Shown: positions 303 to 37,761 of the stretch, one piece after another
Numbering within the stretch: position 1 is the first letter of the stretch
Layout of the letters: every line of letters begins with the position of its first letter
IMG/VR virus record: IMGVR_UViG_3300033233_000006
Location: 32,001-96,000 of that record
Direction: 5' to 3' (one strand)
Length of the DNA stretch: 64,000 nucleotides
Source: a virus
Notes under the pieces: generated by a model
Seen by the model: only the letters and a program-made list of their open reading frames with translations
Told to the model about the DNA's origin: nothing
The model's database searches: none
Program-made: the position numbers and the translations under genes

Positions 303-2093
303 ATGAGTCGCCGAGTCCTGAACGACCTGCAAGGCACCTACAAGATGTCCATCCTCGAAGGGCAGCAGGGCGGGAAGCTCGTCGTCGAGGGCAAGATCGG
401 TCACTGCGATCAGGCCACGGCGAATGGCCGGGTGTACCCGCGCTCCGTCATGGAGCGCGAGATCGGCAGGCTCAAGCCGAAGATCGAGTCGGTCAGCGTC
501 TACAGCGCTGTCGACCACCCGGGCGACGGCAAGACGCGCATCAAGGACTCGGGCGCGCTCGTTCGCGATCTCTGGATCGAGCCCTCGGGCGAGATCAGAG
601 GCCGCTTCGAGGTCGTCGAGGAGGCTCCGGCTGGACAGGCGCTCGCCGCCTTCCTGCGCCGGGGCGCCTCGGTCGGCATGTCCTCGCGCGGCATGGGTTC
701 GACGACGACCGGGCCCGGCGGCCACGATGTCGTCGGCGAGGACTTCCGCCTCAACACCTGGGACTTCGTCTCCGATCCGGCGTGCCAGGACGCCTACCCC
801 TCGCTCGTCGCCGAGGGGGAGGAGGAGAAGATCACCGAGGATCACATCCGTGCCCGCTTCCCCAAGATCGTCACGGCGATCGAGGAACGCGCCTACGCGA
901 CCGCTCAGTGCGTCGTCGAGGAGGACGCTCGCGAGCGCATCGGAACCGAGGTCACCACCCAGACCGAGAAGGACGCCGAGGAGGCGATCAAGCTCGCGGC
1001 CCCCAAGATCCGCGAGGAGATGAAGGCCGAGCTGCGCGAGGAGATGAAGAAGGAGCTGAGCGAGGACTTCGCCGTCAAGCTCGTCCGCGCGCTCGCCGAG
1101 ATGAAGGACACGGTGACGGAGGAAGTCCGCTCCGAGCTGTCGTCCGACCCCGAGGTCGCCGGAGCCAAGCTCGCGATCAAGAAGATCGCGGAGATGGTCG
1201 CTCCCTTCAAGGCGCCCGTCGATGTCGAGAAGGTGCTCGCCGAGAAGGACACCAAGGTCACGCGGCTGGAGACGCAGCTCAAGACGGAGCAGGAGAAGGT
1301 CGCGAACCTCGACCACAAGGGCAAGATCCTCGCCTACGCCGTCTACGTCGAGCAGCGCATCGCCAACCGCGAAGATGCCGCCGACCTGCGCAAGCTCATC
1401 GGCAAGCTCGAAGACGTGAAGTCGGGCAAGGAGCTGGAGGCGAAGGTCGACGCCGTCGTCTCCGAGGCCGACAAGCACATCGCCAAGGCCAAGGAGGACG
1501 CCGAGGAGCAGCTCGCTTCGGTCCAGGCCGAGGCCGAGGAGCGGGCCGCCGAGGCGGAGCGCCGCGCGCTCGACGCCGCGACGCGCGAGCGAAAGCTCCG
1601 CGAAGAGGTCGACAAGCGCATCGGGCAGGTCGAGTCGCAGGTCAAGTCCGTCACCGAGGACTTCAAGAAGAAGCTTGACGAGAAGGACAAGGCGCTCGAT
1701 GCCGCCCAGAAGCGGATCACGACGCTGAGCGAGTCCGGCAACAAGGCCAACCTCGCCTCGTACGCGAAGGAGCGGACAGCCGGACACCCCAAGGCGCAGC
1801 AGATCACCGAGGAGGTTCAGGCCGGCAAGCTCACCTCCAAGGTCGAGATCGACAAGCGCGCCACGAAGCTCGAAACGGCGGCCCAGGAGCCCGGCGGCGT
1901 CCACGAGCGCGTGCGCCGCGCGATGAGCGCCGGACGCGAAGCCATGACCGAGGACGAGCGCGTCCAGGTCGAGGCGACCGAGATCGCCTACGGAGACGAT
2001 GGAGAGGCGGCAGACGATCTCAGGGAGATCGGCACGTCCCTCACGGAGCAGACCCATCTCGCCCGAGGCCCCAGTCGGGCCCCGGGCATGTAA
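303..2093 (+). CDS. gp21: T4 gp21-type prohead protease fused to a long coiled-coil scaffold region
   Basis: Motifs NGRVYP, VDHP, VGMSSRGMGS, WDFVSDPA; E/K/A-rich coiled-coil C-terminal 400 aa; RBS AGGAGA; directly before capsid gene. Confidence 0.88.
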   Translation: MSRRVLNDLQGTYKMSILEGQQGGKLVVEGKIGHCDQATANGRVYPRSVMEREIGRLKPKIESVSVYSAVDHPGDGKTRIKDSGALVRDLWIEPSGEIRGRFEVVEEAPAGQALAAFLRRGASVGMSSRGMGSTTTGPGGHDVVGEDFRLNTWDFVSDPACQDAYPSLVAEGEEEKITEDHIRARFPKIVTAIEERAYATAQCVVEEDARERIGTEVTTQTEKDAEEAIKLAAPKIREEMKAELREEMKKELSEDFAVKLVRALAEMKDTVTEEVRSELSSDPEVAGAKLAIKKIAEMVAPFKAPVDVEKVLAEKDTKVTRLETQLKTEQEKVANLDHKGKILAYAVYVEQRIANREDAADLRKLIGKLEDVKSGKELEAKVDAVVSEADKHIAKAKEDAEEQLASVQAEAEERAAEAERRALDAATRERKLREEVDKRIGQVESQVKSVTEDFKKKLDEKDKALDAAQKRITTLSESGNKANLASYAKERTAGHPKAQQITEEVQAGKLTSKVEIDKRATKLETAAQEPGGVHERVRRAMSAGREAMTEDERVQVEATEIAYGDDGEAADDLREIGTSLTEQTHLARGPSRAPGM

Positions 2094-2107: not shown

Positions 2108-3559
2108 ATGTTGACTCAGCGCAGAATGATCAACGAGAGCGATCAGAGGGCCGCGGTGCGCGAGGCCGTCCCGATCGCCGACGAGTCGGCTGTAGGCCGA
2201 TACGTCGCGAAGTGGAACAAGCTCCTCATCGGTCTCGACGAGGAACTCGGTCCGCACGCGACGCCCGGCCAGAAGCAGTACGTGAGGGGCATCGCCGCCC
2301 TCATGATCGAGCAGGAGGTTCGCCACCTCAAGCGGCTGAACGAGGAGACGCGCGCTCTCTCGGTCGGTCCGTTCATGAAGTACGTGCTTCCGGTCATCCG
2401 GCGCACGGCGATCCGCCTCGTGGCGACGCAGATCAGCTCGGTCCAGCCCATGACCGGCCCGATCGGCGGCGTCGCGTTCTACCGTCCGCGCTACGCGAGC
2501 GACAAGGGCTCGATCGTCGCCGGCACGGAGATGAACAAGGTCTTCAACAAGTGGTACAGCTCCAACTTCGTCGACGGCGAGCCCTTCGCCACCGGCGACG
2601 CGGGCGGTACGGTGACGTTCGGACGCAACCTCCAGTGGCCTCGCCCGACGGCGGGGACGCTCGTGGTGAAGGTCAACGGCACGGTCGTCGGCACCGACAA
2701 CGGCGGCGGCAGCTTCAACATCGTCGCGGGGTCGATCCTGGCCGGTGGCTCGGGCTCGATCAACTACCAGTCGGGCCTGCTCAGCCTGACCTTCGGCACC
2801 GCTCCGGCGAACGGTGACAAGGTCACGGTCGAGTACCGCTACGACAACGAGCTGAACAGCCGCATCCCCGAGGTCCAGCTCGACATCGAGATCAAGGAGA
2901 TCCGGGCCGAGAGCCGCAAGCTCAAGAGCCTGGCGTCGGTCGAGGCGGCGGACGACCTCCGCGCTCTCTGGGGCCGCGACGTGGATGCGGACCTGGTCGC
3001 GCAGATGTCGGACGAGATGACCGCCGAGATCGACCGTGAGATCGCCGGCACGGCGCTCAACGCGGTCGAGCCGACGGCGGTCGTCAAGTGGGACCGTGCG
3101 ACCGCCTCCGGCGTGTCGGACCCCGAGCACCTCAAGTCGCTCACGATCCGGCTCTCCAGGGCGAGCCACATCGTCCACCGTCGCACCCAGCGCGCTCCGG
3201 CGAACTGGATCATCACGTCGTCCGAAGTGGCGTCGCTCCTCGACAACATCGACGGCTTCGTGGCCGTCGACGAGGGACACGTCTACCAGGGCGGCATCAT
3301 CAAGCAGGGCGTTCTCCAGCGGAAGTGGGTGGTCTTCGTCGACCCGCTCTTCCCGCAGAACCAGATGCTCTTGGGCTATCAGGGTCCGAGCATTCTGGAC
3401 ACGGGCCTCATCTACAGCCCGTACATCCCGATGGAGATCACTCCGAACTTCATCGACCCCAACGATCTGAGCCTGCGTCGCGCCGTGCGCACCAGGCACA
3501 AGATCACCCTCACTCGCCCCGAATTCTTCGCGCGAGTCGAGATCGACAACCTGACCTAA
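2108..3559 (+). CDS. gp23: Major capsid protein (T4 gp23 family)
   Basis: SVQPMTGPIGGVAFYRPRY, AESRKLK, EMTAEIDREI, ANWIITSSEVAS, GLIYSPYIP motifs; RBS AAGGAGG. Confidence 0.95.
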   Translation: MLTQRRMINESDQRAAVREAVPIADESAVGRYVAKWNKLLIGLDEELGPHATPGQKQYVRGIAALMIEQEVRHLKRLNEETRALSVGPFMKYVLPVIRRTAIRLVATQISSVQPMTGPIGGVAFYRPRYASDKGSIVAGTEMNKVFNKWYSSNFVDGEPFATGDAGGTVTFGRNLQWPRPTAGTLVVKVNGTVVGTDNGGGSFNIVAGSILAGGSGSINYQSGLLSLTFGTAPANGDKVTVEYRYDNELNSRIPEVQLDIEIKEIRAESRKLKSLASVEAADDLRALWGRDVDADLVAQMSDEMTAEIDREIAGTALNAVEPTAVVKWDRATASGVSDPEHLKSLTIRLSRASHIVHRRTQRAPANWIITSSEVASLLDNIDGFVAVDEGHVYQGGIIKQGVLQRKWVVFVDPLFPQNQMLLGYQGPSILDTGLIYSPYIPMEITPNFIDPNDLSLRRAVRTRHKITLTRPEFFARVEIDNLT

Positions 3560-7665: not shown

Positions 7666-7965
7666 ATGGGCTCGTCGCGCAAGCCGAGGCCGCATCGTAC
7701 CGAAGGTGAGGTCCGGCTCGGCCCGACGCTCGTCGCGCTAGAGTCGAAGGACAACGAGTGGTGTCACCTATGTGGACAGCGCTCGACCGGGATCTTCGTC
7801 GAGGTTTGGCTCCCCAAGAACGCTGAACACGACCGCCGGAACTCAGCCGGAGCCCTCGATCGTAGCTACCTGCGGATGTGCGCGGACTGCGCGACGGCGA
7901 TCGGCGGAGCCGGCGTCTCGGTCGTCGACAGGTTGGCCGCCCTGGACGACAGGCCGCCCAGGTAG
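7666..7965 (+). CDS. Small zinc-finger protein with C-terminal tag (SVVDRLAAL)
   Basis: CHLC and CADC pairs; RBS GGAGG; upstream GGTAGAA motif. Confidence 0.7.
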   Translation: MGSSRKPRPHRTEGEVRLGPTLVALESKDNEWCHLCGQRSTGIFVEVWLPKNAEHDRRNSAGALDRSYLRMCADCATAIGGAGVSVVDRLAALDDRPPR

Positions 7966-18008: not shown

Positions 18009-18082
18009 GTCCTCGTAGCTCAGCAGATCAGAGCGACGCCCTCCGAAGGCGAAGGTCGCTGGTGCGATTCCAGCCGAGGACA
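18009..18082 (+). tRNA. tRNA-Arg(CCG)
   Basis: Loop CT-CCG-AA; D-loop AGCAGATCA (A20); T-loop TGCGATT. Confidence 0.9.
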
Positions 18083-18087
18083 TGCTT

Positions 18088-18161
18088 GTCTCCGTAGCTC
18101 AGCAGATCAGAGCAACGCGCTACGAACGCGGAGGTCGCAGGTGCAATCCCTGCCGGGGACA
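18088..18161 (+). tRNA. tRNA-Arg(ACG)
   Basis: Loop CT-ACG-AA; T-loop TGCAATC. Confidence 0.9.
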
Positions 18162-18169
18162 TCTCTCAA

Positions 18170-18242
18170 GCCGTCGTAGCCCAATAGCAGAGGCGCTTGA
18201 TTCAGGGTCAAGAGGTTGTGGGTGCAACTCCCACCGGCGGCA
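18170..18242 (+). tRNA. tRNA-Leu(CAG), short variable region
   Basis: Loop TT-CAG-GG; variable region AGGTT; A73. Confidence 0.85.
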
Positions 18243-18246
18243 TCGC

Positions 18247-18322
18247 GGGTCGCTAGGGAAGCGAGCACACCCGCCCGGCCTAAACCCGGGAACGCTCGGT
18301 GCAAGTCCGAGGCGACCTACCA
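18247..18322 (+). tRNA. tRNA-Leu(TAA), short variable region, encoded CCA
   Basis: Loop CC-TAA-AC (C33); variable AACG; ends A-CCA. Confidence 0.75.
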
Positions 18323-18325
18323 CAC

Positions 18326-18398
18326 GCCCCTCTAGCCCAACAGCAGAGGCGCTCGGCTTAGGACCGAGAGGTTCCGGGTGCGAATCCCGGGAGGGGCA
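18326..18398 (+). tRNA. tRNA-Leu(TAG), short variable region
   Basis: Loop CT-TAG-GA; variable AGGTT; T-loop TGCGAAT. Confidence 0.85.
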
Positions 18399-18402
18399 TC
18401 GC

Positions 18403-18472
18403 CGGGCGCGGTCTAGTCGACCAGGTGAGGCTTATATCCTTGCCGCGCTGGGTGCGATCCCCAGGCGCCCCA
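18403..18472 (+). tRNA. Atypical tRNA with TAT anticodon (Ile or initiator-like)
   Basis: C1:C72 mismatch; D-arm GGTC-TAGTC-GACC abutting acceptor; 7-bp anticodon stem; loop CT-TAT-AT. Confidence 0.7.
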
Positions 18473-18476
18473 TCAA

Positions 18477-18550
18477 GCCGCTCTAGCCCAACCAGCAGAG
18501 GCGCCGGTCTCAAAAGCCGGAGGTTCTCGGTGCAAGTCCGAGGAGCGGCA
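18477..18550 (+). tRNA. tRNA-Leu(CAA), short variable region
   Basis: Loop CT-CAA-AA; variable AGGTT; T-loop TGCAAGT. Confidence 0.85.
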
Positions 18551-18561
18551 GCAGCAGCGAG

Positions 18562-18631
18562 TGTCACCGGGCGACCAAAAGCCCGGCGAGGCGTGGAGCG
18601 ATGTCCTCGCGAGAGGGCTACGCAACCGACA
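18562..18631 (+). ncRNA. Candidate three-way-junction small RNA between tRNAs
   Basis: TGTC/GACA closing CCGGGC/GCCCGG and GCGTGG/CTACGC with inner CCTC-GCGA-GAGG GNRA hairpin. Confidence 0.4.
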
Positions 18632-18639
18632 ACAACTAC

Positions 18640-18727
18640 GCGGTCGTGGCGGAATCTAGCAGACGCACCAGGTTGAGGGCCTGGCGTCCCGAAAGGGCGA
18701 CTGTGGGTGCAAGTCCCACCGACCGCA
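18640..18727 (+). tRNA. tRNA-Leu(GAG)
   Basis: Long variable arm; loop TT-GAG-GG; D-loop AATCTAGCAGA; T-loop TGCAAGT. Confidence 0.9.
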
Positions 18728-18732
18728 TTCAA

Positions 18733-18805
18733 GGGTGTGTAGCTCAGTAGTTAGAGCGCGCGGCTGATAACCGCGAGGTCGAGAGTGCGATCCTCTCCTC
18801 ACCCA
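18733..18805 (+). tRNA. tRNA-Ile(GAT)
   Basis: Loop CT-GAT-AA; D-loop AGTAGTTA; T-loop TGCGATC. Confidence 0.9.
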
Positions 18806-18810
18806 TCTCT

Positions 18811-18897
18811 GGAGAGCGAACCGAACGAGCGCATCGGTCCTCGGTGCTAACGAGTGAGTGCCCGAGAGGGTATGGGGTGCAAGTCCTCCGTTCTCCG
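18811..18897 (+). tRNA. tRNA-Ser(GCT), 8/4 fold
   Basis: GGAGAGCG/CGTTCTCC-G; GGGG/CCTC T-stem; loop GT-GCT-AA. Confidence 0.85.
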
Positions 18898-18923
18898 TGC
18901 GATCATGTCGTCCAACCCTAAGA

Positions 18924-18995
18924 CGGGGTGTAGCTCAGCAGCAGAGCCTCGCGTTTGGGACGCGAAGGTCGCGGGTGCAATCCCCGCCACCCCGA
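18924..18995 (+). tRNA. tRNA-Pro(TGG)
   Basis: C1:G72, A73; loop TT-TGG-GA; T-loop TGCAATC. Confidence 0.9.
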
Positions 18996-21582: not shown

Positions 21583-21657
21583 GCTCCCGTAGCTCAGGCA
21601 GATCAGAGCGACGTTTTCCTAAAGCGTAGGTCCCAGGTGCAAGTCCTGGCGGGAGCA
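21583..21657 (+). tRNA. tRNA-Arg(CCT)
   Basis: Loop TT-CCT-AA; T-loop TGCAAGT. Confidence 0.88.
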
Positions 21658-21732: not shown

Positions 21733-21756
21733 TCGACGATCCCAGTTGATGCGCGT

Positions 21757-21792
21757 GGCGCCGGGGTTCCTGCCCGGCGCCGCTTCGTTTCC
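21757..21792 (+). terminator. Terminator closing the tRNA array
   Basis: GGCGCCGGG/CCCGGCGCC stem then GCTTCGTTTCC. Confidence 0.55.
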
Positions 21793-21793: not shown

Positions 21794-21802
21794 GGGTAGA
21801 AC
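21794..21802 (+). promoter_or_regulatory. Recurrent GGGTAGAAC promoter-like motif
   Basis: 6 nt before ATG 21809; same motif precedes many genes. Confidence 0.5.
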
Positions 21803-22413: not shown

Positions 22414-22891
22414 GTCGGAATGGCCCGAATGGAAGCGTGGCGATCGCGCCATCATCGGCGTCATGCGCACCAGACCGCCCGACGGCGTGAGGCGTAGTCC
22501 GAGCGAGACGGTCTACATCCGCGGGACGGTGACGAGCGTCGTGATCGACCTCGGGTGGGGCGGAGCGTGGCGCATCTTCATCCACACCGATGACGGGGAG
22601 ATCGAGAGCTGCTCCCCAGAGAACCTACGCCGGCCCGACGTGATCGAGCTGATCGGAGAGATCCCATGCACTCCAAGACACCGCCCTTCGAGATCGGCGA
22701 CCGCATCCGCCACGGAGAGCGAACCTACGCCCCGGCTAAGAAAGGGTGGCAGCGGGTCTACCCAGGCAGCGTCACCGCGTGCTACTGGAATGACGAAGAC
22801 TCGGACACCGGCTGGTGGGTTACGGCGAAGCTCGACGAAGGTCGAGAGGTCCACGGCACGGCGGGCGAGTTCGAGAAGGTCGTCGACGTGA
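22397..22891 (+). CDS. SH3-like protein with tag (DVIELIGEI); frame runs on into the next gene
   Basis: WKRGDRAII...RGTVTSV...IFIHTDDG; last ~75 codons overlap 22666-22962 out of frame. Confidence 0.6.
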   Translation: MRLPPESEWPEWKRGDRAIIGVMRTRPPDGVRRSPSETVYIRGTVTSVVIDLGWGGAWRIFIHTDDGEIESCSPENLRRPDVIELIGEIPCTPRHRPSRSATASATESEPTPRLRKGGSGSTQAASPRATGMTKTRTPAGGLRRSSTKVERSTARRASSRRSST

Positions 22892-22962
22892 TCGAGGCGT
22901 TGGCGGATCTCTACAAGGAGAAGCCGCTGCGTTTCCTGCCCCGAGGTAGAACGGAGACATGA
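22666..22962 (+). CDS. SH3-like protein with tag (DVIEALADL)
   Basis: RBS GGAGA; FEIGDRIRH. Confidence 0.72.
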   Translation: MHSKTPPFEIGDRIRHGERTYAPAKKGWQRVYPGSVTACYWNDEDSDTGWWVTAKLDEGREVHGTAGEFEKVVDVIEALADLYKEKPLRFLPRGRTET

Positions 22963-23303
22963 GCGGCGACCTGCCCAAGACGCTCCAAGACGGCCAGCAT
23001 CGCCCCGACCCCCAGGAGCGCGAGCTGGCCGAGAAGACGATCGAGCTGTCCGCGCTGGTGGACGACATCAAGCAGATGCGGGAACGGCTCATCCTCAAGT
23101 CGTCGGCGATCTTCAAGCGAATCCGATCGGGCGAGAAGCTCAAGGCGTCGGAGCGGCAGAAGGTCGAAAAGCTCGCCAAGCACTTCGGCAAGACGCCGTT
23201 CGGGCTCACTGAGGCAGTTCGAGCCGCCAAGGAGGCCGATCTCAGTCCGATGCTCCACGCCTGGATCGAGGCGACGGAAGCACGGGTAACTCGGGGGCTG
23301 TGA
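22959..23303 (+). CDS. Helical hypothetical protein
   Basis: ATGA overlap; GGTAGAAC 6 nt upstream. Confidence 0.7.
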   Translation: MSGDLPKTLQDGQHRPDPQERELAEKTIELSALVDDIKQMRERLILKSSAIFKRIRSGEKLKASERQKVEKLAKHFGKTPFGLTEAVRAAKEADLSPMLHAWIEATEARVTRGL

Positions 23304-23306
23304 CCA

Positions 23307-23552
23307 ATGCGCGACGCCGATGGCCGCTACTACAAGGTGCTCGATCGCGTCGTGGTCGAGCCGGCGTGGCACGACGGCTCCAGCATCGGAACGACCCACC
23401 TGGTCGGGCGGCCTACGCGCGGCACGCTCATGGAGACGGAGGGGCCCTCTCGGTTCCGCATCCGACTCGACAACGGCCCGATCATCTACGCGATGCCGGA
23501 GTACGTCCGGCACCTCGACGCGATCGAGGCGGTTTCCGAGGCTGACCGATGA
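23307..23552 (+). CDS. SH3-like protein with tag (LDAIEAVSEA)
   Basis: YKVLDRVVV...FRIRLDNG. Confidence 0.68.
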   Translation: MRDADGRYYKVLDRVVVEPAWHDGSSIGTTHLVGRPTRGTLMETEGPSRFRIRLDNGPIIYAMPEYVRHLDAIEAVSEADR

Positions 23553-23806
23553 GCGAGAAGCCACTGCCGTGCCCCTTCGCCGCTTATGCGCTGGTCAAGG
23601 TGCCCGAATGGGCACGTCCTCTGTACGTCGGGGTTGTCATGGGCACTGAGTCTCGACTCGCGCCCACACCGGCGGGGGCTCGCCCAGACGGCGCCTGGAC
23701 CTGGTTCATCACGATCGACTTCGGGAAGGGAAGAGGCGTTGGCGTTTTTGAGATGCGACACGTCAAACACGTCGACCCGATCTCGGCGCTGGCGCTCATC
23801 CGATGA
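23549..23806 (+). CDS. SH3-like protein with tag (VDPISALALI)
   Basis: ATGA overlap; YVGVVMG...FITIDFG. Confidence 0.68.
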   Translation: MSEKPLPCPFAAYALVKVPEWARPLYVGVVMGTESRLAPTPAGARPDGAWTWFITIDFGKGRGVGVFEMRHVKHVDPISALALIR

Positions 23807-24051
23807 GCGCCGAGGCGAAGGTCGGCGACTGCGTGCGCGTGGTGCGTCCGCACTCTGAGGGCGTGGACAAGTACATCGGCACGGTCGAGGACATCCGCAA
23901 GTACGGCCAATTCCTCCGTTACTACATCCGCCTTCGGAGCGGGAAGCTCCTCAATCTCGACTCGCGGGTCATCAAGCAGCTCGACATCGTGACGGGCTTG
24001 GCGATGCTCGACCCGGAGTTCCAGCCCGACTCGGAGAACGAGAAGCCGTGA
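23803..24051 (+). CDS. SH3-like protein with tag (LDIVTGLAML)
   Basis: ATGA overlap; KVGDCVRVV...YIGTVEDI. Confidence 0.7.
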   Translation: MSAEAKVGDCVRVVRPHSEGVDKYIGTVEDIRKYGQFLRYYIRLRSGKLLNLDSRVIKQLDIVTGLAMLDPEFQPDSENEKP

Positions 24052-24281
24052 GCGGCTTCGAGCGCGGGCAGCGCGTGATCGTTCAGCCAGACAAGAACCT
24101 CGAAGTGGTGCGCGCTGAGGGAGTGGAGATCCGGCTCCCGGCGTTCGGTACCATCGCCCAAGAAGACCCGTGGGGTTATGCGATCGTCCTCGTAGACGGG
24201 CTCACCGAACCGAAGTCGTTCCCGGCCTGGCGCTGCACGCCGCGGAACGTCATCGACGAGATCGGGATGCTCGATAAGTAG
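24048..24281 (+). CDS. SH3-like protein with tag (NVIDEIGML)
   Basis: GTGA overlap; FERGQRVIV. Confidence 0.7.
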   Translation: MSGFERGQRVIVQPDKNLEVVRAEGVEIRLPAFGTIAQEDPWGYAIVLVDGLTEPKSFPAWRCTPRNVIDEIGMLDK

Positions 24282-24782: not shown

Positions 24783-25157
24783 ATGTCTGTCGACTTCGTC
24801 TTCACGATCCCGTTGAGGTACCACGCCGAGGCGGTCGCGGTCTCCAAAGCCGCCGCCTTCGCGGAGGCGTCAGCCGCGGCGGACCGCGTCCTCAGCGCGA
24901 TCGAGCGCGGAACGAAGATCACCGCACTCTACCCGTCCCTTACGCCGCACGATGCGATCGAAGTCCGCGTGGGGCTCGACGACATCTCGGCGCTCAAGGC
25001 GATCCTCGATGCGAACCACTCGCACAGCTTTCCCGTCGTTTCTCCCGACACCGACGAGGTCCAGCTCGACTGGGAGGACTGGAGCTGGCACACGATGCAC
25101 TTGCTCTACTCGTTCGAGCGCGAGTCGGTCGTCGATCATCTCGGGAAGATCCAGTGA
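24783..25157 (+). CDS. Hypothetical protein with tag (SVVDHLGKI)
   Basis: RBS GGAGG; ATG 24783. Confidence 0.68.
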   Translation: MSVDFVFTIPLRYHAEAVAVSKAAAFAEASAAADRVLSAIERGTKITALYPSLTPHDAIEVRVGLDDISALKAILDANHSHSFPVVSPDTDEVQLDWEDWSWHTMHLLYSFERESVVDHLGKIQ

Positions 25158-25537
25158 GCCTTCCCGCGTTTCAGCTCACGTCCCCCGCGCCGCGCGATCT
25201 CTACGAGGTGATGACCTGCGCCGAGCAGATCCTCTGGGACACCAGGAACGAGAAGATGCGACCCGACAGCAACCGCGAGTCGCTCCAGCGGATCGTTGCC
25301 GTGATCAAGACGGACCCCGACTACGGTCGTGGGTGCATCCCCAGCCGATCGCCTGTGCTCGAAATCGCGCACGAAGATGTCCGCACTCTGCGCTTCGTCT
25401 TCCTCGTCCTCCACACCGAGCTGGCGATCAAGGAGGAAGTGACCATCCGCTACGAGGAGTGGCTCGAAGTGACGATGGAGACCCTCGCCAAGATCGGCGA
25501 CACCTCGATCGTCGAGCACATCGGACGAATCCTGTGA
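25154..25537 (+). CDS. Hypothetical protein with tag (SIVEHIGRI)
   Basis: GTGA overlap; begins MSLPAF like next gene. Confidence 0.68.
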   Translation: MSLPAFQLTSPAPRDLYEVMTCAEQILWDTRNEKMRPDSNRESLQRIVAVIKTDPDYGRGCIPSRSPVLEIAHEDVRTLRFVFLVLHTELAIKEEVTIRYEEWLEVTMETLAKIGDTSIVEHIGRIL

Positions 25538-25896
25538 GCCTACCCGCGTTCAAGTTCTACGTTCACGCCGGCATCTTCACAGGCTTCGTGGAGGGCCTTC
25601 GCGTTCACAGCCTGAAGACCAACGGCATGCCCGAACCGCCGTTCGTCTGCGATCGGCCCGCCATCAAGGCGATCGACGAGATGGCGGCGCTCAACGCCCA
25701 CCGGCTCCAGCTTCACTGGACGATTCCCTACGACCTGCTCGACGCTCTCATGGACGTGCTCGCGTGGTGGATGGCGAACACGAAAGCCGGCGCGTTGACC
25801 GACGCGGACGAGTTCGCGTTCGACCTCCTCGAATCGGCCCGGGAGTGGCGGCGTCGGTCGATCGTCGATCACATCAGCGAGATCCGGCATGAGTAA
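25534..25896 (+). CDS. Hypothetical protein with tag (SIVDHISEI)
   Basis: GTGA overlap; begins MSLPAF. Confidence 0.68.
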   Translation: MSLPAFKFYVHAGIFTGFVEGLRVHSLKTNGMPEPPFVCDRPAIKAIDEMAALNAHRLQLHWTIPYDLLDALMDVLAWWMANTKAGALTDADEFAFDLLESAREWRRRSIVDHISEIRHE

Positions 25897-26290
25897 AGAC
25901 CGACTCGGACCCCCGGTTCGTGTCGAGATCGCAGCCGGCGAGTGGCAGGTCTTCATGCTCGGCCTCTCGTGGGCGATCCGTCGCAGCTACGTCGATCACG
26001 TTACGCTCGGCTACTCGGCGCTTGTCGAGGAGGCGCTTCTCGCGGCGAGCAAGAAGCGGCGGACGCGCGACAAGACGCCCGCCGTGCTCGAATTGCCGAG
26101 GTCGACGCTCGACTGGACTGGCGAGGCGCTCATCCGGGCCAGTCGCGACGCGAAGGCCAAGGTCAACTACTTCAATGGTCGCACGACTAAGGAACGGCGA
26201 GCGTTCATGCGGAACGCCGGGAAGACGATCGAGCGTCTCAAGGCGGAGAACAAGAAGACGGTCATCGACCTCATCGGAGACCTCGGGTAG
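25889..26290 (+). CDS. Hypothetical protein with tag (TVIDLIGDL)
   Basis: Coupled to upstream stop; typical codons. Confidence 0.7.
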   Translation: MSKDRLGPPVRVEIAAGEWQVFMLGLSWAIRRSYVDHVTLGYSALVEEALLAASKKRRTRDKTPAVLELPRSTLDWTGEALIRASRDAKAKVNYFNGRTTKERRAFMRNAGKTIERLKAENKKTVIDLIGDLG

Positions 26291-26308
26291 AACGGAGAGG
26301 GCTTATCC

Positions 26309-26677
26309 GTGTGGTATCCGAATCGAGATCCGAGCCGCGACCCAGACCTCGGCAAGCTCCACTACGGCGTGCTCGTCGACGAAGACTGGTCGTGGACGAC
26401 GCGCCAACCGCAGAAGGGCGAGCAGCGGCCTTACTCACGCGCGCTCAAGCGTGTGATCGGCAAGAACCCGGAGCTGCTCTCCAGTCTTTTCCGAGCGCTC
26501 GCTACCGGCGACGTGACGAGCATTCGTGTGGCCCAGGATGCGATCGCAGACGCCGTCCTGAGCAAGCGCTCAACGTGGTTCCGCAGCGACCGCGGAGCGC
26601 GTCAGAAGATCGACGCCCGGATTCGCGACCTCGCGCTCGCCGACCCGATGACCGTTCTGGCGACGCTCCACGAGTAG
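26309..26677 (+). CDS. Hypothetical protein with tag (DPMTVLATL)
   Basis: GGGTAGAAC and GGAGAGG upstream. Confidence 0.65.
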   Translation: MWYPNRDPSRDPDLGKLHYGVLVDEDWSWTTRQPQKGEQRPYSRALKRVIGKNPELLSSLFRALATGDVTSIRVAQDAIADAVLSKRSTWFRSDRGARQKIDARIRDLALADPMTVLATLHE

Positions 26678-26692
26678 GAAGGGGTGAGGGAG

Positions 26693-27034
26693 ATGAGGAA
26701 CATCGGCACTGACAACATCGTCGAGTTCGTGCGCGGGATGCTCAATCGCCCGATGATGTACTGTCAGTCGACCGAGTCGCTGGAGATGGCGCTCCTCACC
26801 GCCATGACCTGCTGGGCCTACGCCAGCGGAGCTGACTCGGACGAACGCGTCAGGAATCTGTGGCGTCGCGAGATCCACCGACTCCATGGCAACACCGGCT
26901 CGCGCGCAGTAACGCTCTCCGATCTTCCCACTTGTGGCAAGGCGATGCACATGGACGCTGTGACCGTGCCGATGCGCCGCATCTGGCTCGCGCTCACGGA
27001 GCCGATCACTGCTATCGGAAACGTCGAGCTATGA
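26693..27034 (+). CDS. Hypothetical protein with tag (EPITAIGNV)
   Basis: Purine-rich RBS; typical codons; start could be 26684. Confidence 0.65.
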   Translation: MRNIGTDNIVEFVRGMLNRPMMYCQSTESLEMALLTAMTCWAYASGADSDERVRNLWRREIHRLHGNTGSRAVTLSDLPTCGKAMHMDAVTVPMRRIWLALTEPITAIGNVEL

Positions 27035-27213
27035 AGATCCTGCGGTGTATGGTCTGCCACCACGAGCACCCGCTCGAAGACGCGCCCGAGCGCTGCCTGT
27101 GCGGTGCTAAGCTCTACGGGAAGTGGGCTCGGGCTACCGAGCGCGTCATGGTGGCCGCGCGGGCTCGTGGCGCTGAAATCAGGTCTCAGATCAACGTGCG
27201 AGAGCAGACATGA
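27031..27213 (+). CDS. Small zinc-ribbon protein
   Basis: ATGA overlap; CMVC...CLCG. Confidence 0.55.
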   Translation: MKILRCMVCHHEHPLEDAPERCLCGAKLYGKWARATERVMVAARARGAEIRSQINVREQT

Positions 27214-27599
27214 GCGTCGACGCCGACTCCATCAAGCAGAAGTGGGGTGTGCTCGCCGGTTCGCTCGACTCGAACGCGGCGGCGCTCATGGAGAGATTCG
27301 TTCGTGGGGAGACGGAGCTGCTCGAACGGCTTGAGGCAAAGGGCTCCAAGATCCCGGCGTGGGTGATGGCGGCGCACAGGCCGATCAACCCACCGCACAC
27401 ACCGCTCATCTCGGTTCAACCCATGTCGGCGCCGGTCGGCGGCATCGCGTTCTACAGGCCGCGATACGGGTCGGAGCCCGAGTGCATCATCGACGCGCTC
27501 GCCACGCTCGACTCGAAGAAGCCGGTCGAGAACCCCTACAAGCGCAAGCGCAGAGGGGGCGAGATCGCGCCGGGTCGCGAGGGTATGAAGACGGTCTGA
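27210..27599 (+). CDS. Truncated paralogue of the major capsid protein N-terminus carrying the tag (CIIDALATL)
   Basis: ISVQPMSAPVGGIAFYRPRYGS versus capsid SSVQPMTGPIGGVAFYRPRYAS; KQKWGVLAGSLD versus VAKWNKLLIGLD. Confidence 0.8.
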   Translation: MSVDADSIKQKWGVLAGSLDSNAAALMERFVRGETELLERLEAKGSKIPAWVMAAHRPINPPHTPLISVQPMSAPVGGIAFYRPRYGSEPECIIDALATLDSKKPVENPYKRKRRGGEIAPGREGMKTV

Positions 27600-27880
27600 T
27601 GGCGAAGTCTGGTCCGAGCCAGGAAGATGATGCTCGCCTCGCCGCCGAGCGGGAGAAGGTCGCCTGCCGCTACTGCGGCGGCAAGCCTATTCACTTCCCA
27701 CCGCCGGGACGCCCTCAATCGGATGCTGTCTGCGAGGACTGCTCGCATCGCGCGCCGTGGATGTCGGTCGTCGAATCCGTCGTCCAGTTGGCGCACCCGG
27801 AACCGAAGGCTGTCGACATCCGAGTCGACGGTGTCAAGTACCGGCCCACGACCGATTTCTCCAAGGAGAACTTCACTTGA
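27599..27880 (+). CDS. Zinc-finger protein with weak internal tag (SVVESVVQL)
   Basis: TGATG overlap; CRYC...CEDC. Confidence 0.6.
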   Translation: MAKSGPSQEDDARLAAEREKVACRYCGGKPIHFPPPGRPQSDAVCEDCSHRAPWMSVVESVVQLAHPEPKAVDIRVDGVKYRPTTDFSKENFT

Positions 27881-28230
27881 CCCCGAACAGGCCGGCGTTC
27901 GCCGCGTGCATGGTCGCCTACACGGCGGTCGATGTGCTGGCGAACCTTCGGCTCAAGGTCTGGCTCGCCGATGGAAGCTGGATAGCGTTCGCGCAGGGCA
28001 TGTTCTTCTACGTCGGATGCGGCGCGCTGTGGGCGCTGAGCCTCAAGTTCGAGAGCTTCGCCAAAGCAGCGCTCGTCTACACGCTGATTGCCCTCGCGGC
28101 GGGCGTCATCCTCGGCGTATTCTTCTTCAAGGAGAAGCTGTCGACGTTGAACTGGGTGGGCGTGGGCGTCGCGCTCATCGCCATCATCCTCGTCGAGTGG
28201 CCCAGCAACCAGGGAGTGAACGAACAGTGA
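27877..28230 (+). CDS. Small multidrug resistance / DMT-family membrane protein
   Basis: Four hydrophobic helices; GVFFFKEKLSTLNWVGVGVAL signature; start TTG 27877 or ATG 27910. Confidence 0.75.
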   Translation: MTPNRPAFAACMVAYTAVDVLANLRLKVWLADGSWIAFAQGMFFYVGCGALWALSLKFESFAKAALVYTLIALAAGVILGVFFFKEKLSTLNWVGVGVALIAIILVEWPSNQGVNEQ

Positions 28231-28508
28231 GCGAAGACAACGAGATGCCGAACGGCGAGATCCCCCACCGCACCGACGAGCGCGAGTGGCGCCCAGGAGA
28301 ACTTGCCGAGGTGAAGACGCGCGGCGCGGGTCCGGGCCAGCGCGTCAAGATCCTCTCGGCGTGGTGGGGCAAGGACACCGGTCACCGCGTCTGCAAGGTC
28401 ATCGACGAGTCGACCGGCAAGGAGTACGTCGTCTTCGGCGACGTGCTCAAGCCGCTCGATGCGGTCACGGCGGTCGGCGGCGCGGCTTCGACCACCCAGC
28501 AGCGGTGA
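28227..28508 (+). CDS. SH3/KOW-like protein with tag (LDAVTAVGGA)
   Basis: GTGA overlap; WRPGELAEVK...GQRVKIL. Confidence 0.68.
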   Translation: MSEDNEMPNGEIPHRTDEREWRPGELAEVKTRGAGPGQRVKILSAWWGKDTGHRVCKVIDESTGKEYVVFGDVLKPLDAVTAVGGAASTTQQR

Positions 28509-28735
28509 ACCGGGTCTACGAGTTCGCGGTAGGAGAACGTGTCAGGTGGGAGTATCCGCCCGGCGAGTTCGGCGTGGTCACGAAGCTCGGCCCGCCGAAC
28601 GGCATCTTCGGGAACTACGGAGTCCTCGTGAAGTGGGACGACAGGAAAGACCCGGCGTGGCATGACGATCTCGACCTCGTTTCGGCACCAGTCGTCGACC
28701 TCCTCGCCTCCATCCATGCGCACCATCGGCACTGA
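28505..28735 (+). CDS. SH3-like protein with tag (PVVDLLASI)
   Basis: GTGA overlap; FAVGERVRW...FGVVTK...VLVKWDD. Confidence 0.7.
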   Translation: MNRVYEFAVGERVRWEYPPGEFGVVTKLGPPNGIFGNYGVLVKWDDRKDPAWHDDLDLVSAPVVDLLASIHAHHRH

Positions 28736-29039
28736 TACCGCTCGCCGGTGCGCGCAGATGCGCATTGGCGGCGGTCGCCAGGTCGCCTGCAACAAGCCGG
28801 CGACCTGGCGCGTCGGCCTCGGGCTCCGCTCCTACAAGGACGGCCAAGAGCGGCTCTACATGATCGACGCAGCGGTGTGCTGTAACCGCTGCCGCGCGTC
28901 GGTCACCTTGAAGAACTTCGTCGACGACCGCATCTTCGCCTACGTCTCCCATCAGGCTATCGCAAGCGGGTGGCCGCCGCCCAAGCGGGGGCTCGTGCGG
29001 CTCGTGTTCGAGCACCTACGCCGCGGCTACACCACGTAG
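28716..29039 (+). CDS. Cys-containing hypothetical protein
   Basis: C...C...CCNRC; typical codons. Confidence 0.55.
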   Translation: MRTIGTDTARRCAQMRIGGGRQVACNKPATWRVGLGLRSYKDGQERLYMIDAAVCCNRCRASVTLKNFVDDRIFAYVSHQAIASGWPPPKRGLVRLVFEHLRRGYTT

Positions 29040-29094
29040 ACCAGCTACCGCGTTCGAGTCCGGGGTGCTAGGGTAGACGCCGAAGGAGACCTCG

Positions 29095-29421
29095 ATGTCC
29101 ACCACGATCACCATCAACGTCGGTGCGGTTGCCGATGCCGTCCAGCCGGTTCTCGACGCGCTCGACTCGATCCTCCAGTCGACGGTCGTGCCGCTCCAGA
29201 ACCAGCTCGCGTGCTCGAAGCAGCTCAACAGCCCGCTCACGCAGGTCATCTACACGTTCCCCGACTCGGTCCCGGCGGACCAGGTCTACAACTTCTACCG
29301 GCGCGTGAAGCTGGAGACCGGCATCCTCGGGACGAAGCTCACCGAGACGACGCCCGCCGGTATCCCGCAGGCCCTCTCGGCGGTCGTCTTCGAGGTCCCC
29401 GCCTACGGCCAGCCGGTCTAG
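29095..29421 (+). CDS. Hypothetical protein
   Basis: RBS AAGGAG; GGGTAGAC upstream; strong codon bias. Confidence 0.75.
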   Translation: MSTTITINVGAVADAVQPVLDALDSILQSTVVPLQNQLACSKQLNSPLTQVIYTFPDSVPADQVYNFYRRVKLETGILGTKLTETTPAGIPQALSAVVFEVPAYGQPV

Positions 29422-29534
29422 TCGACACACTCCGACGCGCTCCTTGGTTTGATCGTCCAGCGCCGGGCCGTGGTGGGCTCGGCGCTGTTTTGCCGTCTGG
29501 CTTCTGCTACCTTATCCGCGAACTGGAGGGTTCG

Positions 29535-30023
29535 ATGGAGACGACGGCGGTGCTCGCACCCGGTCTTCTTCCGCATCAGCATCATCGCGCTGTCGGCACC
29601 GTCAAGAAGACGGAGGCCCACATCGCCCGCGTCAAGGCGGCCCACAGACGCGAAAGGACGAAGGCGTCGTCGCGGTCGCCCAAGTGGGCCTACTTCCGTA
29701 CGAAGCTCCTTGTCAAGCACCGGGCGGCTGGGAAGGGCTGTGAGGCGTGCGGCTCGAAGGTCGGACTTCAACTCCACCACATCGTGCCGTTCAACGTGAA
29801 TCCCAAGCGCGAGCTGGACCCGACGAACATCATCGTGCTCTGCGAGTTCGTGGGAGGGCTGGAGTGCCACGAGTTGCTCGGCCACGGCGACAACTGGAAG
29901 CGCTACAACCCGCGCATCCGCGAGGACGCGGCTGCGCTCATGGCCGACCCCAAGAAGCTCAGCGAGATCCGAGCCAGCGCAAGGAAGAATCGCGTCCTCA
30001 ACGCGCCCCCGCGCGCGAGCTAG
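29535..30023 (+). CDS. Small HNH nuclease (possibly packaging-associated)
   Basis: RBS GGAGG; CEACG...LHHIVPF...NIIVLCE...CHELLGH. Confidence 0.8.
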   Translation: METTAVLAPGLLPHQHHRAVGTVKKTEAHIARVKAAHRRERTKASSRSPKWAYFRTKLLVKHRAAGKGCEACGSKVGLQLHHIVPFNVNPKRELDPTNIIVLCEFVGGLECHELLGHGDNWKRYNPRIREDAAALMADPKKLSEIRASARKNRVLNAPPRAS

Positions 30024-35004: not shown

Positions 35005-37761
35005 ATGGCGAACACTCTTGAGATCCTGAGCCCCGGCGTCTTCGGCTTCGAGAAGAAGCCTGGGCGCGCGCCTCAGTCATTCTCCCCGGCCAAGATGGGC
35101 ATCGTCGGGTGGACCGATCAGGGTCCGTCCAACCTGCCGGTCCAGGTCCAGTCGTTCGAGGACTTCAAGGCCGTCTTCGGCGACATCTCGACGCTCAGCG
35201 TCGTTCCGCTCGCGGTGCAGGCGTTCTTCGCGACGGGCGGCCAGGCGGCGTGGGTCAGCCGAGTCGTTCCCGCCGACGCCGTCGCCGCGTCGGTGCAGGT
35301 CGATCCGGTGCCCGGTCCGACGAAGTGGACCTTCACGTCGCTCGGGGAAGGCACCTGGGGCAATTCGACGACGGTCCGCATCCGCGGCAACCAGAACTTC
35401 CTCGACCGCACCCCCGGCTCGGTCAAGTGGGACAAGTTCGACCTCCTCGTTCTCCGACCGTTCCCCGTCGATCCGACGATCATCACGGCGGCTGAGACGT
35501 TCGAGGCGATCACGCTCACCGACGCGACCGCGACCGACTACCTCGGGACGGTGATGGCCGACCCGTCGCGGCGCTCGACGCTCATCACGGTCACGGCTGG
35601 CATCAGCGGCGTGCCGACCGGGCTCCTCGGGGCGAACTACCAGGACGAGGTCAGCGGCGTCGGCACCGGCATCCTGACGAACTTCGTCTTCACGCTCCTC
35701 AACGGGAATGTCCTTCCGGGCAACTACCGGCTCGTCGCGGGCGGCACGCAGGTCAACGACCAGGCCCAGACGCCCACCGGCCTGATCAACAACTCGAACA
35801 TGCTGTTCACGCTGACAGTCCCCGGTTTCCCGATCGCCGACGGAACGCTCAAGCTCTTCTACGCGAAGTTCCCGTCGCTCATCGCGCAGGCGCTCACGGT
35901 CACCGGCGCGATCAACGGCGTCAACAAGGACTTCACAGTCGCCATCGGCGCGTTGGGCAACGCCGTCTACCGCGAGGGCACGGTCTTCCGCATCCGCTAC
36001 GCCGCTGTCGCGGGCGCGTCGCCGCAGCTCCTCTTCACGGTCGGCGCATCGCCCGCGACCTACGACCTCTCGACCACGCCGCTCACGAGCACGCCGATCA
36101 TGCCCGGCTCGGTCTCGATCGCGGTGACCACGGTCGCGAACGGTGCGCAGGTCATCACCGACGACGGCAACGGGAATCTCACCAACCCGCTCGCTCTGGC
36201 GGCACCCGGTACGATCGACTACGTCACGGGCGCGATGACGGGCATCACCCTCACGCTCACGGCGCTGTCGACGGTGGTCGCGACTTACAACTCCTCGCTC
36301 GCGATCACCAAGGGCGCATCGAGCAGCAACGTGGCGCAGGGCGTTGCGCTCGTCGGCTCGATCGACGGCACCGGCGTCAACACGATCAACCTCACGAACT
36401 CGACGACTGCGCCGACCACGAACGGCGCCATCTCGTTCAGAACGTTCGTCGCCCCGCTCGCCGGCACGACCATCCTCATCGACTACGTGAGGACTGGCAT
36501 CATCAACTCGTCACTCGCGGGCGTGCTCACGGGCGACGTGAACCTCGTGCCGACCCACACGATCGACTTCACGACCGGTCTCACCCAGTTCACGACGACG
36601 TTCCCGCCGCTCACCGGCACGACGATCGACGCCACCTACCAGACCGGTCTCGTCATCAGGGACAACGGCCTCGGGCGCCTGATCGGCAACGTCAATCCGA
36701 CCGGGGTCAACACGATCGACTACGCCACGGGCGCGGTGAACGCCCAGTTCTCGACGCCGCCGCTCAGCGGAGCGACGCTCTACTCGAACTACGACACGCT
36801 CGCGCCGTTCCTCGACTTCCCGCTCACCGGCGGACTCAACGGCAGCGCGATCAGCCGGTCGGACATCTCGCTGGCGGGACCGCCGATCACCGGGCTCGAA
36901 GCGACGAAGAAGGGCATCTACGCCCTCGATCTCGTCGAGGAGCCGCTCAACGTCATCGTGCCCGACTTCGAGGGCTCGCAGTTCGTCCAGTTCGACCTCG
37001 TGCAGTTCGGAAAGAACCGGGCCGACAACCGCTTCCTCATCATGGGCTTCGGCTTCGGCACGACGGTCCCCCAGGCGATCCAGTACGTCCTCGTCACCCA
37101 GGCGTGGGACGTGAAGTTCGGAGCGATCTACTACCCCAACATCTACTTCACGAACCCGGTGACGGAGCTGGCCCAGCTCATGCCGGTCACGCCGTTCGCA
37201 GCCGGCATCTACGCGAAGACGGCCCACAACAAGAACGTGGGCAAGGCTCCCGGTGGCGTCGAGGACGGAGCCCTGGACGGCGAGGGCACGGTCGGTCCCG
37301 AGTTCAAGGTCGAGCTGGCCGACCGCAACGCGCTCTACCAGGCCAAGATCAACCCGATCATCTCCTCGCAGGCGACGGGTCTCTCGGTCTGGGGCGTCCG
37401 CACGCTCTCCAACGAGCGCCGGTGGCGGTACGTCAACGCCCGCACGCTGCACGACTACCTCATGTACGCGACGAGCCTCCAGCTCCAGTGGGCCGTCTTC
37501 GAGAACAACGGGCCTCCGCTCTGGGCGAAGATCAGCACCGCGCTCAAGGGCTTCTACGGGTCGCTGTTCCGACTCGGCTACTTCGCGGGCGATACCGAGG
37601 CGCAGGCGTTCGACGTGGTCTGCAACTCGACGAACAACAACCAGAAGACGATCTCGCAGGGCAAGGCGATCATCGACATCGGGTTCGCCCCCAACACCCC
37701 AGCCGAGTTCATCATCTTCACGCTCAAGCAGCCGGTCGGCCAGCAAGCGTCGCTGGTCTAA
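35005..37761 (+). CDS. gp18: Contractile tail sheath protein with large beta-rich insertions
   Basis: LSPGVF, GWTDQGP, FFATGG..AWVSRV, GTWGN, VGKAPGG, INPI, WGVRTL, RYVNAR, VFENN, PAEFI. Confidence 0.95.
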   Translation: MANTLEILSPGVFGFEKKPGRAPQSFSPAKMGIVGWTDQGPSNLPVQVQSFEDFKAVFGDISTLSVVPLAVQAFFATGGQAAWVSRVVPADAVAASVQVDPVPGPTKWTFTSLGEGTWGNSTTVRIRGNQNFLDRTPGSVKWDKFDLLVLRPFPVDPTIITAAETFEAITLTDATATDYLGTVMADPSRRSTLITVTAGISGVPTGLLGANYQDEVSGVGTGILTNFVFTLLNGNVLPGNYRLVAGGTQVNDQAQTPTGLINNSNMLFTLTVPGFPIADGTLKLFYAKFPSLIAQALTVTGAINGVNKDFTVAIGALGNAVYREGTVFRIRYAAVAGASPQLLFTVGASPATYDLSTTPLTSTPIMPGSVSIAVTTVANGAQVITDDGNGNLTNPLALAAPGTIDYVTGAMTGITLTLTALSTVVATYNSSLAITKGASSSNVAQGVALVGSIDGTGVNTINLTNSTTAPTTNGAISFRTFVAPLAGTTILIDYVRTGIINSSLAGVLTGDVNLVPTHTIDFTTGLTQFTTTFPPLTGTTIDATYQTGLVIRDNGLGRLIGNVNPTGVNTIDYATGAVNAQFSTPPLSGATLYSNYDTLAPFLDFPLTGGLNGSAISRSDISLAGPPITGLEATKKGIYALDLVEEPLNVIVPDFEGSQFVQFDLVQFGKNRADNRFLIMGFGFGTTVPQAIQYVLVTQAWDVKFGAIYYPNIYFTNPVTELAQLMPVTPFAAGIYAKTAHNKNVGKAPGGVEDGALDGEGTVGPEFKVELADRNALYQAKINPIISSQATGLSVWGVRTLSNERRWRYVNARTLHDYLMYATSLQLQWAVFENNGPPLWAKISTALKGFYGSLFRLGYFAGDTEAQAFDVVCNSTNNNQKTISQGKAIIDIGFAPNTPAEFIIFTLKQPVGQQASLV

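Follow-up and report, generated by a model that had tools for sequence, protein, structure and literature searches.

A capsid-fragment mini-gene with a shared peptide tag in an uncultured phage with a T4-type capsid

Within a 64,000-base window of viral DNA (bases 32001-96000 of the 131,251-base IMG/VR record IMGVR_UViG_3300033233_000006; the whole record is denoted G000) we analysed an open reading frame (ORF) at 27210..27599 that joins a piece of the phage's own major capsid protein (MCP) to a short helical peptide, denoted the tag. The GC content is 64%, and the completeness of G000 is estimated by CheckV at 46%; a protein identical to the ORF product is also encoded on a 254,565-base contig. 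The source is a giant, uncultured phage of roughly 250 kb with a T4-type capsid. It has no close cultured relative, the MCP identity being below 60% in all 2578 matching records.

A capsid fragment among coupled small genes

The ORF is intact, and its GC content at third codon positions (GC3) is typical for local coding frames. It is translationally coupled on both sides: its ATG overlaps the TGA of the upstream gene (ATGA), and the downstream gene begins within its stop codon (TGATG). The distance to the MCP gene is 23.6 kb. On intactness, coupling and distance the preliminary description of this DNA, which had put the last at about 24 kb, was accurate.

The MCP gene is the source of the capsid segment copied in the ORF, with the corresponding motif at positions 2426-2500. 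BLASTP aligned ORF residues 64-94 with MCP residues 107-137 (18 of 31 identical, E 2e-11), and a profile built from MCP residues 1-140 matched the ORF at E 2.3e-11. A six-frame search of the whole 131-kb record returned only the ORF itself and the MCP (E 2.2e-9), and the reciprocal search agreed. The likeness to the MCP far exceeds what chance would give, and the homology is directly observed. The motif had been called nearly identical to that of the MCP; the likeness is real, but with 16 of 22 residues identical that wording is too strong and "similar" is apt. The KW..L...LD segment noticed upstream of the motif is also real, though weak against the phage's own MCP. In tblastn searches, ORF residues 11-88 matched full-length MCPs from other phages at their N-terminal ends (34% identity, E 3e-7), and because these residues are collinear with other MCP N-termini, the segment belongs to the same MCP copy. 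At the DNA level the motif differs from the MCP gene by many synonymous changes (e.g. AGG versus CGT for arginine), and the copy is therefore an old one rather than the product of a recent conversion. The nearest ESM Atlas clusters to the ORF were short viral proteins annotated as Gp23 (score 0.91-0.92), and the PDB held no match to it at E ≤ 1.

The capsid part goes back to roughly the first 130 MCP residues, in shortened form. Of the capsid protein, the mini-protein retains only propeptide-like helices (aa 5-43), a PAW remnant of the N-arm (49-55) and the stretch from the end of the N-arm into the E-loop (64-88). This last stretch, the core motif, covers the N-arm end and the first E-loop strand and appears to overlap the region homologous to the Gol peptide of T4 gp23; its residues Q, P, P, G, G, F, P and Y are invariant in the family of small proteins described below. 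The tag (aa 92-101) and a basic tail (aa 102-129) follow, as had been described, and in the alignment a tail motif [KR]x[VA]xNP[YF] is common to the homologues P0002, P0006 and P0019. An AlphaFold2 (AF2) model of the ORF product (predicted local distance difference test, pLDDT, 64.6) has helices at 5-16, 21-43, 50-55 and 93-101 and no strands; the capsid motif is modelled as coil, the tag as a helix and the tail as disordered. The capsid stretch is thus predicted to be unstructured in isolation. The corresponding model of the MCP (pLDDT 68.6) has a propeptide helix (53-83), an N-arm helix (86-103), the first E-loop strand (122-129), an insertion domain (155-243), return strands, a short helix (279-288) and the spine helix (292-319).

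All elements of a complete HK97 fold (P-domain sheet, spine helix and A-domain) are present in the MCP model and the ORF does not have this set; the Pfam Gp23 profile scores it at 14.2 bits, versus a cut-off of 24.4, and only over profile positions 21-52 of 376. Since it is without most of the HK97 fold, the mini-protein cannot be a shell subunit. The donor MCP belongs to the same family as T4 gp23 and gp24 (PF07068; PDB 6uzc, 7vs5, 5vf3 and 1yue) and matches the solved gp23 structures 6uzc, 7vs5 and 5vf3 at E 5e-54. In that family gp24 offers an example of an MCP paralogue that took on a separate role; however, gp24 is a full HK97-fold subunit, whereas the ORF holds about 25 conserved fold residues and stays below the Pfam cut-off.

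The ORF lies in an array at 21.8-29 kb, made up of about twenty small genes on the + strand, which comes after a tRNA cluster and a hairpin (Table 1). Two of the four coupled genes in 24783-26290 start alike, with V/M-S-L-P-A-F, and are therefore probably tandem paralogues. The transfer RNA (tRNA) cluster, between the head genes and the array, comprises 34 genes (33 at 13406-18995 and one at 21583-21657), one of them with a four-base anticodon call. Among the head genes, a T4-type portal gene interrupted by an intein lies just upstream of the window (L079:6502-10008, that is G000 26502-30011; Pfam Portal_T4 3e-31 and Intein_splicing 4e-25). Directly after the capsid gene comes an HNH homing-endonuclease gene (3710-4771), followed by a long ORF (4861-6462) with repeated, zinc-ribbon-like W-H-P-T-K-N-G units. 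The tail module lies beyond the array, with a sheath gene at 35005..37761.

Table 1. Genes, protein segments and motifs of the window, in window coordinates
Feature	Position	Strand	Details
Prohead protease-scaffold fusion gene	303..2093	+	Pfam Peptidase_S77 3.3e-13
MCP gene, T4 gp23 type	2108..3559	+	483 aa; Pfam Gp23 E 2.7e-54
Tagged gene outside the array	7666..7965	+	99 aa; behind a GGTAGAA motif
Terminator-like hairpin, then GGGTAGAAC	21755-21783, then 21794-21802	+	14 nt before the first array gene
Other tagged small array genes	22666..24281	+	Ends at 22962, 23552, 23806, 24051 and 24281
Four coupled genes, each tag-ended	24783..25157, 25154..25537, 25534..25896, 25889..26290	+	120-133 aa; starts inferred from overlaps
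GGGTAGAAC promoter-like motif, nearest upstream of the capsid-fragment gene	26285..26293	+	Covers the stop codon of tagged gene 25889..26290
Two small genes with looser C-terminal tag variants	26309..26677 and 26684..27034	+	
Upstream coupled zinc-ribbon mini-gene	27034..27213	+	59 aa; weak rubredoxin-like match, E 0.015
Capsid-fragment mini-protein gene	27210..27599	+	129 aa; ATG start; GC3 0.88
MCP propeptide-region copy (aa 11-43)	27240..27338	+	KW..L..LD, then a long helix; tblastn and alignment to MCP 35-80
PAW-type short helix (aa 49-55)	27354..27374	+	MCP N-arm helix remnant; PAW/PPW conserved in orthologues
Capsid core motif (aa 64-88)	27399..27473	+	SVQPM..P.GG.AFYRPRYG; equals MCP 107-131
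Shared helical tag (aa 92-101)	27483..27512	+	C-I-I-D-A-L-A-T-L-D; AF2 helix 93-101
Basic tail (aa 102-129)	27513..27596	+	NPY/F-K/R motif common to the closest orthologues
Downstream coupled Cys-rich mini-gene	27599..27880	+	93 aa

Homologues, selection and other capsid pieces

Exhaustive searching with phmmer yielded 20 proteins at E ≤ 1e-3, and a profile search found 61 small proteins. We examined 43 small proteins, namely 41 of these 61 together with the window ORF and the ORF of locus L014. Capsid motif and tag are combined in 21 of them, in variable order: the tag precedes the motif in P0033, P0036 and P0067 and flanks it on either side in P0030. In the remaining 22 proteins the motif is present but no clear tag is. 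These include P0018, P0026 and P0037, which have another C-terminal domain, and the membrane-anchored P0010, P0012 and P0013, metagenomic proteins of 240-250 aa with an N-terminal membrane helix, the MCP N-arm and VQPM motif, and an acidic tag-like helix; some of the 22 may be capsid genes cut by contig ends. Orthologues of the ORF sit in similar arrays in two IMG/VR phages, G001 (119 kb) and G002 (160 kb), and in G002 the MCP gene is ~85 kb away from the mini-gene. A scan of JGI metagenomes yielded 8 loci, none of them close.

Selection on the gene was estimated by the Nei-Gojobori method from the G001 and G002 orthologues, as nonsynonymous (dN) and synonymous (dS) divergence; dS is near saturation and the alignment of the flanks is uncertain. 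The 66-codon core, made up of the N-arm remnant, the motif and the tag, has a dN of 0.21 and a dS of 1.11 (dN/dS ~0.19), whereas the 46 flanking codons have a dN of 0.71 and a dS of 0.60 (dN/dS ~1.2). The preliminary description had held that neutral decay or frameshifts in homologues would speak against a functional gene; the orthologues are intact, and the ratio over motif and tag argues against decay.

Tagged small ORFs of G001 and G002 hold other pieces of the MCP. These are its C-terminus (433-482; BLASTP E 4e-7, profile E 1e-5), residues 411-471 in a 127-aa ORF of G002 (E 8e-8 and 2.3e-8), residues 430-449, the region 269-317 (at profile level only, E 2e-4 to 3e-3) and, weakly, the propeptide (E 0.011). 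When 402 small ORFs with masked tags were compared with 121 large proteins, the short-fragment matches of tagged ORFs fell on the MCP for four ORFs, plus one MCP-fragment ORF with a tag variant that the regular expression had missed. The rest consisted of one marginal sheath match (E 0.002) and of ordinary homologues aligned over long stretches. Since the two MCPs account for ~1.5% of the large-protein residues searched, this amounts to a strong bias towards the MCP.

These observations bear on a neutral account of the ORF, in which recombination in tagged arrays captures random gene pieces and the ORF is a passenger. Such a neutral by-product would be in keeping with the mosaic, fast-changing nature of the arrays, with the dN/dS of ~1.2 in the flanks of the core, and with the detection of no MCP-fragment gene other than the ORF in the 131 kb of G000. 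However, random capture does not sit well with the low ratio in the core, with the 21 small relatives that keep motif and tag intact across many contigs, or with captured pieces that come overwhelmingly from a single gene, that of the MCP, so small a share of the residues searched, and that correspond to the most conserved motifs of the MCP. We consider a neutral origin very improbable; the ORF is a conserved, selected accessory gene and not debris.

A separate likeness concerns a part of the MCP that the ORF lacks. The insertion domain (MCP 138-238) resembles repeated domains in sheath-sized proteins of 920-940 aa in relatives (E 1e-4 to 8e-3), at G001 17687-18502 and G002 88145-88873 (the sheath gene of the window is that at 35005-37761). 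These matches suggest a domain common to capsid and tail proteins.

The tag and the promoter-like motifs

The tag is a 10-residue amphipathic helix of the pattern hhDxLxxL, which in G001 and G002 usually comes after E-P-S and is followed by a D-P turn and a charged helix. A regular expression for the tag matched 75 of the 553 coding-like ORFs of G000, G001 and G002 (~14%), versus a mean of 11.75 in shuffled proteins. The matches fall mostly in small ORFs and mostly close to the C-terminus; on the + strand of G000 there are 13 in 29,648 coding-like residues, 10 of them within the last 45 residues of their proteins. We scanned 70 of the 75 tagged ORFs with Pfam, excluding the ORF under study, its orthologue in G002 and three further ORFs that run over the boundary between two pieces. 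Known domains followed by a C-terminal tag were found in a DNA methylase, a zeta-toxin-like kinase/ATPase and two DUF6011 proteins; a few matches lie inside large proteins (portal, Metallophos, EamA, DnaB_C) and may represent the share expected by chance. For the mini-proteins, Pfam and PHROGs searches with the ORF and 70 + 29 tagged or array proteins gave no family, and the tag region alone had no usable match in the ESM Atlas. The preliminary description had proposed that the tag is a portable module, and this is supported: the tag occurs on unrelated proteins, and relative to the capsid motif it may lead, trail or do both. A short peptide on such a share (~14%) of one phage's ORFs points to a putative hub receptor.

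The tag is conserved as a peptide and not as DNA, because the codons at its positions follow genome-wide usage (GCG equals GCC, GAC and GAT both occur, and both serine codon families are used) and because the G001 tags are without GTCGAC. On the same grounds we ruled out a DNA or RNA element in the form of a palindrome around GTCGAC, since G001 is tagged yet has no such site. The site counts are 0 in G001 (119 kb, L064-L069), 135 in G000 and 89 in G002, and the absence from G001 looks like avoidance of a SalI-type restriction site. We also rejected homology of the tag to the near-C-terminal MCP segment that follows Y-x-P, as the ORFs G002_143988 and G001_101516 hold both in tandem. A derivation from the scaffold C-terminus was likewise rejected: with a position-specific scoring matrix (PSSM) of 66 tags, none of 27 scaffold tails scored above the 95th percentile of the controls (Mann-Whitney p 0.13). 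The C-terminal motif of the protease-scaffold protein (303..2093) is kept in relatives, and it is not tag-like by the PSSM. To the eye, the tag strikingly resembles both the scaffold C-terminus and MCP helix 279-288, the PSSM comparison having been made against scaffold tails only.

The array also has a regulatory signature. The heptamer GGTAGAA occurs 33 times in G000, 17 of these lying 8-49 nucleotides (nt) upstream of a start on the same strand, usually in the form GGGTAGAAC. This promoter-like motif is found on both strands of G000 (in the window e.g. at 3684, 7640 and 9224) and recurs within the array at 21794, 22945, 24335 and 26285, and as GGGTAGAC at 29071. It often comes after a hairpin and TTCGTTTC, and several copies stand 11-17 nt from a start codon, which suggests leaderless or near-leaderless mRNAs. 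The nearest copy upstream of the ORF, at 26285..26293, probably heads an operon at 26309..27880. Motifs of this type also precede HNH, NUDIX, ADP-ribosylglycohydrolase, AAA_5, DUF2201 and DUF2325 genes; the ADP-ribosylglycohydrolase gene, behind GGTAGAA, has a LAGLIDADG domain inside it (L080:8939-11155, that is G000 104838-107057). The tail module (29.3-65.7 kb) is free of GGTAGAA-type motifs, as is the + strand of the stretch that holds the portal, protease and MCP genes. Because its promoter-like motif is absent from the structural modules, the ORF belongs to an accessory regulon and not to a structural one. Searches for the T4 late promoter TATAAATA gave no matches, and no sigma-70-like promoters were found in 20.5-31 kb.

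A second recurrent motif, TGCAACTCCTCG-N7-GTGT, stands 18-60 nt ahead of starts; most of the genes concerned are small, on the - strand and located upstream of the window. It occurs at 24307 in the window and, in G000 outside it, e.g. at window coordinates -21758, -19575, 72820, 87192 and 90842. The TGCAACTCCTCG 9-mer is also present in the T-arms of many tRNA genes.

The tag and the promoter class together bear on the main rival to the interpretation given below, in which the tag loads proteins into the prohead and the capsid part binds the scaffold, the protease or a neighbouring MCP, so that the mini-protein would be cargo of the head interior or a modulator of assembly. Such loading would resemble that by the T4 capsid-targeting sequence, of the P1 Dar proteins or by encapsulin cargo peptides. 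In the HK97 fold the copied pieces serve as contact elements (the N-arm and first E-loop strand and, in relatives, the spine helix and C-terminal P-domain strands), and the ORF appears to keep a propeptide-like helix, with a motif of the L-x-E type at the point at which the propeptide ends in the MCP alignment. A DNA methylase and a kinase-like ATPase are among the tagged proteins, and enzymes of such kind are reportedly injected by other phages, as with P1 DarB and T4 Alt; a set of about 20-35 tagged proteins in each genome would be compatible with a large head. However, the promoter-like motif of the array is of the accessory type that the head and tail modules lack, the tag PSSM does not score scaffold C-termini above controls, and the tag can be N-terminal, internal or doubled. 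We regard a place in the head as unlikely, and the promoter class leans towards a cytoplasmic mimic or decoy over a late head component.

Short address peptides common to unrelated proteins are known in a capsid context from the T4 capsid-targeting sequence, the cargo peptides of encapsulins and the C-terminus of SaPI1 CpmB, which mimics the scaffold. The T4 signal is N-terminal, about 10 residues long and removed by the prohead protease, whereas the motif shared here is C-terminal, internal or doubled, which sets it apart from targeting of the T4 type. A scaffold mimic of the CpmB kind is likewise not indicated, none of the 27 scaffold tails having scored above the control 95th percentile. 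The tag thus differs from these address peptides in sequence, in being independent of position, in being unlike the scaffold C-termini of its clade and in belonging to an accessory regulon.

Possible roles of the mini-protein

The core motif is the most conserved part of gp23-type MCPs: MCP residues Q113, P114, P118, G120 and Y129 are invariant even in comparison with T2 gp23, and the Q-P-M..P.G of the small-protein family aligns with T2 gp23 residues 113-122. Near invariance of the motif across 20 related MCPs means that one fragment could act on many relatives, and the mini-protein might accordingly be a weapon against competing phages, blocking the capsid assembly of co-infecting relatives in a dominant-negative manner. 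Precedents come from satellites, whose scaffold-like mimics (SaPI1 CpmB and P4 Sid, for example) redirect the assembly of capsids. However, the phage's own MCP carries the same motif, so that the inhibitor would hit its producer unless the two were separated in time, and there is no sign of lysogeny or a resident state: among prokaryotes, searched as one genome each of 185,579 species, the family gave 2 pattern matches and 0 loci. We find such a weapon against kin improbable; it fits the data less well, as does neutral debris.

Capsid proteins are described as major triggers of bacterial immunity, through Lit, CapRel, Avs7, Avs8 and Avs10. For the segment considered here the relevant case is Gol, described in a review (PMC3014915) as a 29-residue stretch that is the most conserved part of gp23 and works as a free peptide. 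According to that review, Gol binds domains II and III of EF-Tu, and the review's authors expect EF-Tu binding for all T4-type MCPs. Binding of EF-Tu by Gol triggers the Lit defence, and EF-Tu, with the Lit protease acting on the complex, is the only experimentally known reader of this gp23-type segment. The motif of the ORF aligns with the VQPM stretch of T2/T4-type gp23; it differs from the Gol/EF-Tu/Lit exclusion system (prophage e14) in that Gol sits within the capsid protein, whereas the ORF is a separate gene with an added tag and basic tail. The preliminary description had conjectured a capsid-epitope decoy, an assembly modulator or an inhibitor of competitor phages, and had drawn analogies to both Lit with Gol and CapRel. 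The former analogy gains some support from the apparent overlap of the motif with the Gol-homologous region, and the latter received no specific support.

We tentatively propose that the mini-protein is a competitive mimic of unassembled MCP that covers the Gol-homologous region and is docked by its tag to a common receptor, a reading that we prefer while granting it clearly less than an even chance. The mini-protein would display the most conserved linear segment of the MCP in an open, floppy form; the displayed segment would compete with newly made, unassembled MCP for whatever reads that segment; and the tag helix would dock the mini-protein, like other tagged accessory proteins, to the common receptor. 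The partner may lie on the host side, as EF-Tu or a sensor of nascent MCP, with the mini-protein acting as a decoy or blocker. We favour this choice of partner, with similar reserve and by analogy, because EF-Tu is the known reader and the family motif aligns into what we take to be the Gol region. The closest conceptual parallel is offered by microProteins, small proteins that stem from the interaction region of a larger one and titrate its partners, a concept that comes from eukaryotic transcription factors: like them, the ORF product is of small size, has its paralogue in a single contact region of a large protein and likely acts by competition. Of the known classes we compared, this is the only one with a defining property that the ORF has, being a small selected paralogue of one interaction region. 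It differs from them in belonging to another kingdom and in its shared tag, which is without counterpart there.

Several points weigh against a competitive mimic. The small family keeps mainly the C-terminal half of the Gol-homologous region and the next strand; the N-arm half is degenerate in the ORF and kept in P0003-type members. The limits of Gol, which we take to be about residues 93-122, with Q-P-M..P.G inside them, are themselves our assumption and count on this side as well. A tblastn search of 50,697 phage records gave no match, i.e. no cultured relative. The T4 Gol peptide alone activates Lit, and a faithful mimic might therefore trigger the defence instead of blocking it. Avs7, the one MCP sensor with a characterised structure in the literature covered, grips the folded MCP monomer by shape complementarity according to a preprint, which a linear fragment would not imitate.

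In the literature searched (full text, with passages of a phage-countermeasure review of November 2026) we found no description of capsid-fragment genes or decoys, of a proteome-wide tag, or of a phage countermeasure built on copies of a capsid protein's own conserved segments. More broadly, the competitive mimic could be one element of a tag-addressed display system of this phage clade. A shared docking helix would bring dozens of accessory proteins to one receptor, and a subset of them would display conserved MCP segments as free peptides, blunting host sensing of nascent MCP or capturing EF-Tu before the capsid gene is expressed. The segments so displayed would be the Gol-like N-arm/E-loop stretch, the spine helix and the C-terminal strands. 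This wider proposal, taken jointly with its segments, is a doubtful one and less likely than the mimic alone.

If the display system is real, it would constitute a new class of anti-defence that works through decoys of the phage's own epitopes. If the mini-proteins are decoys or EF-Tu binders, they would open a direct way to study the sensing of nascent MCP and the reason for the strong conservation of the Gol region. Should the tag prove to be a head address instead, a tailed phage would have a natural system for loading cargo, comparable to that of encapsulins.

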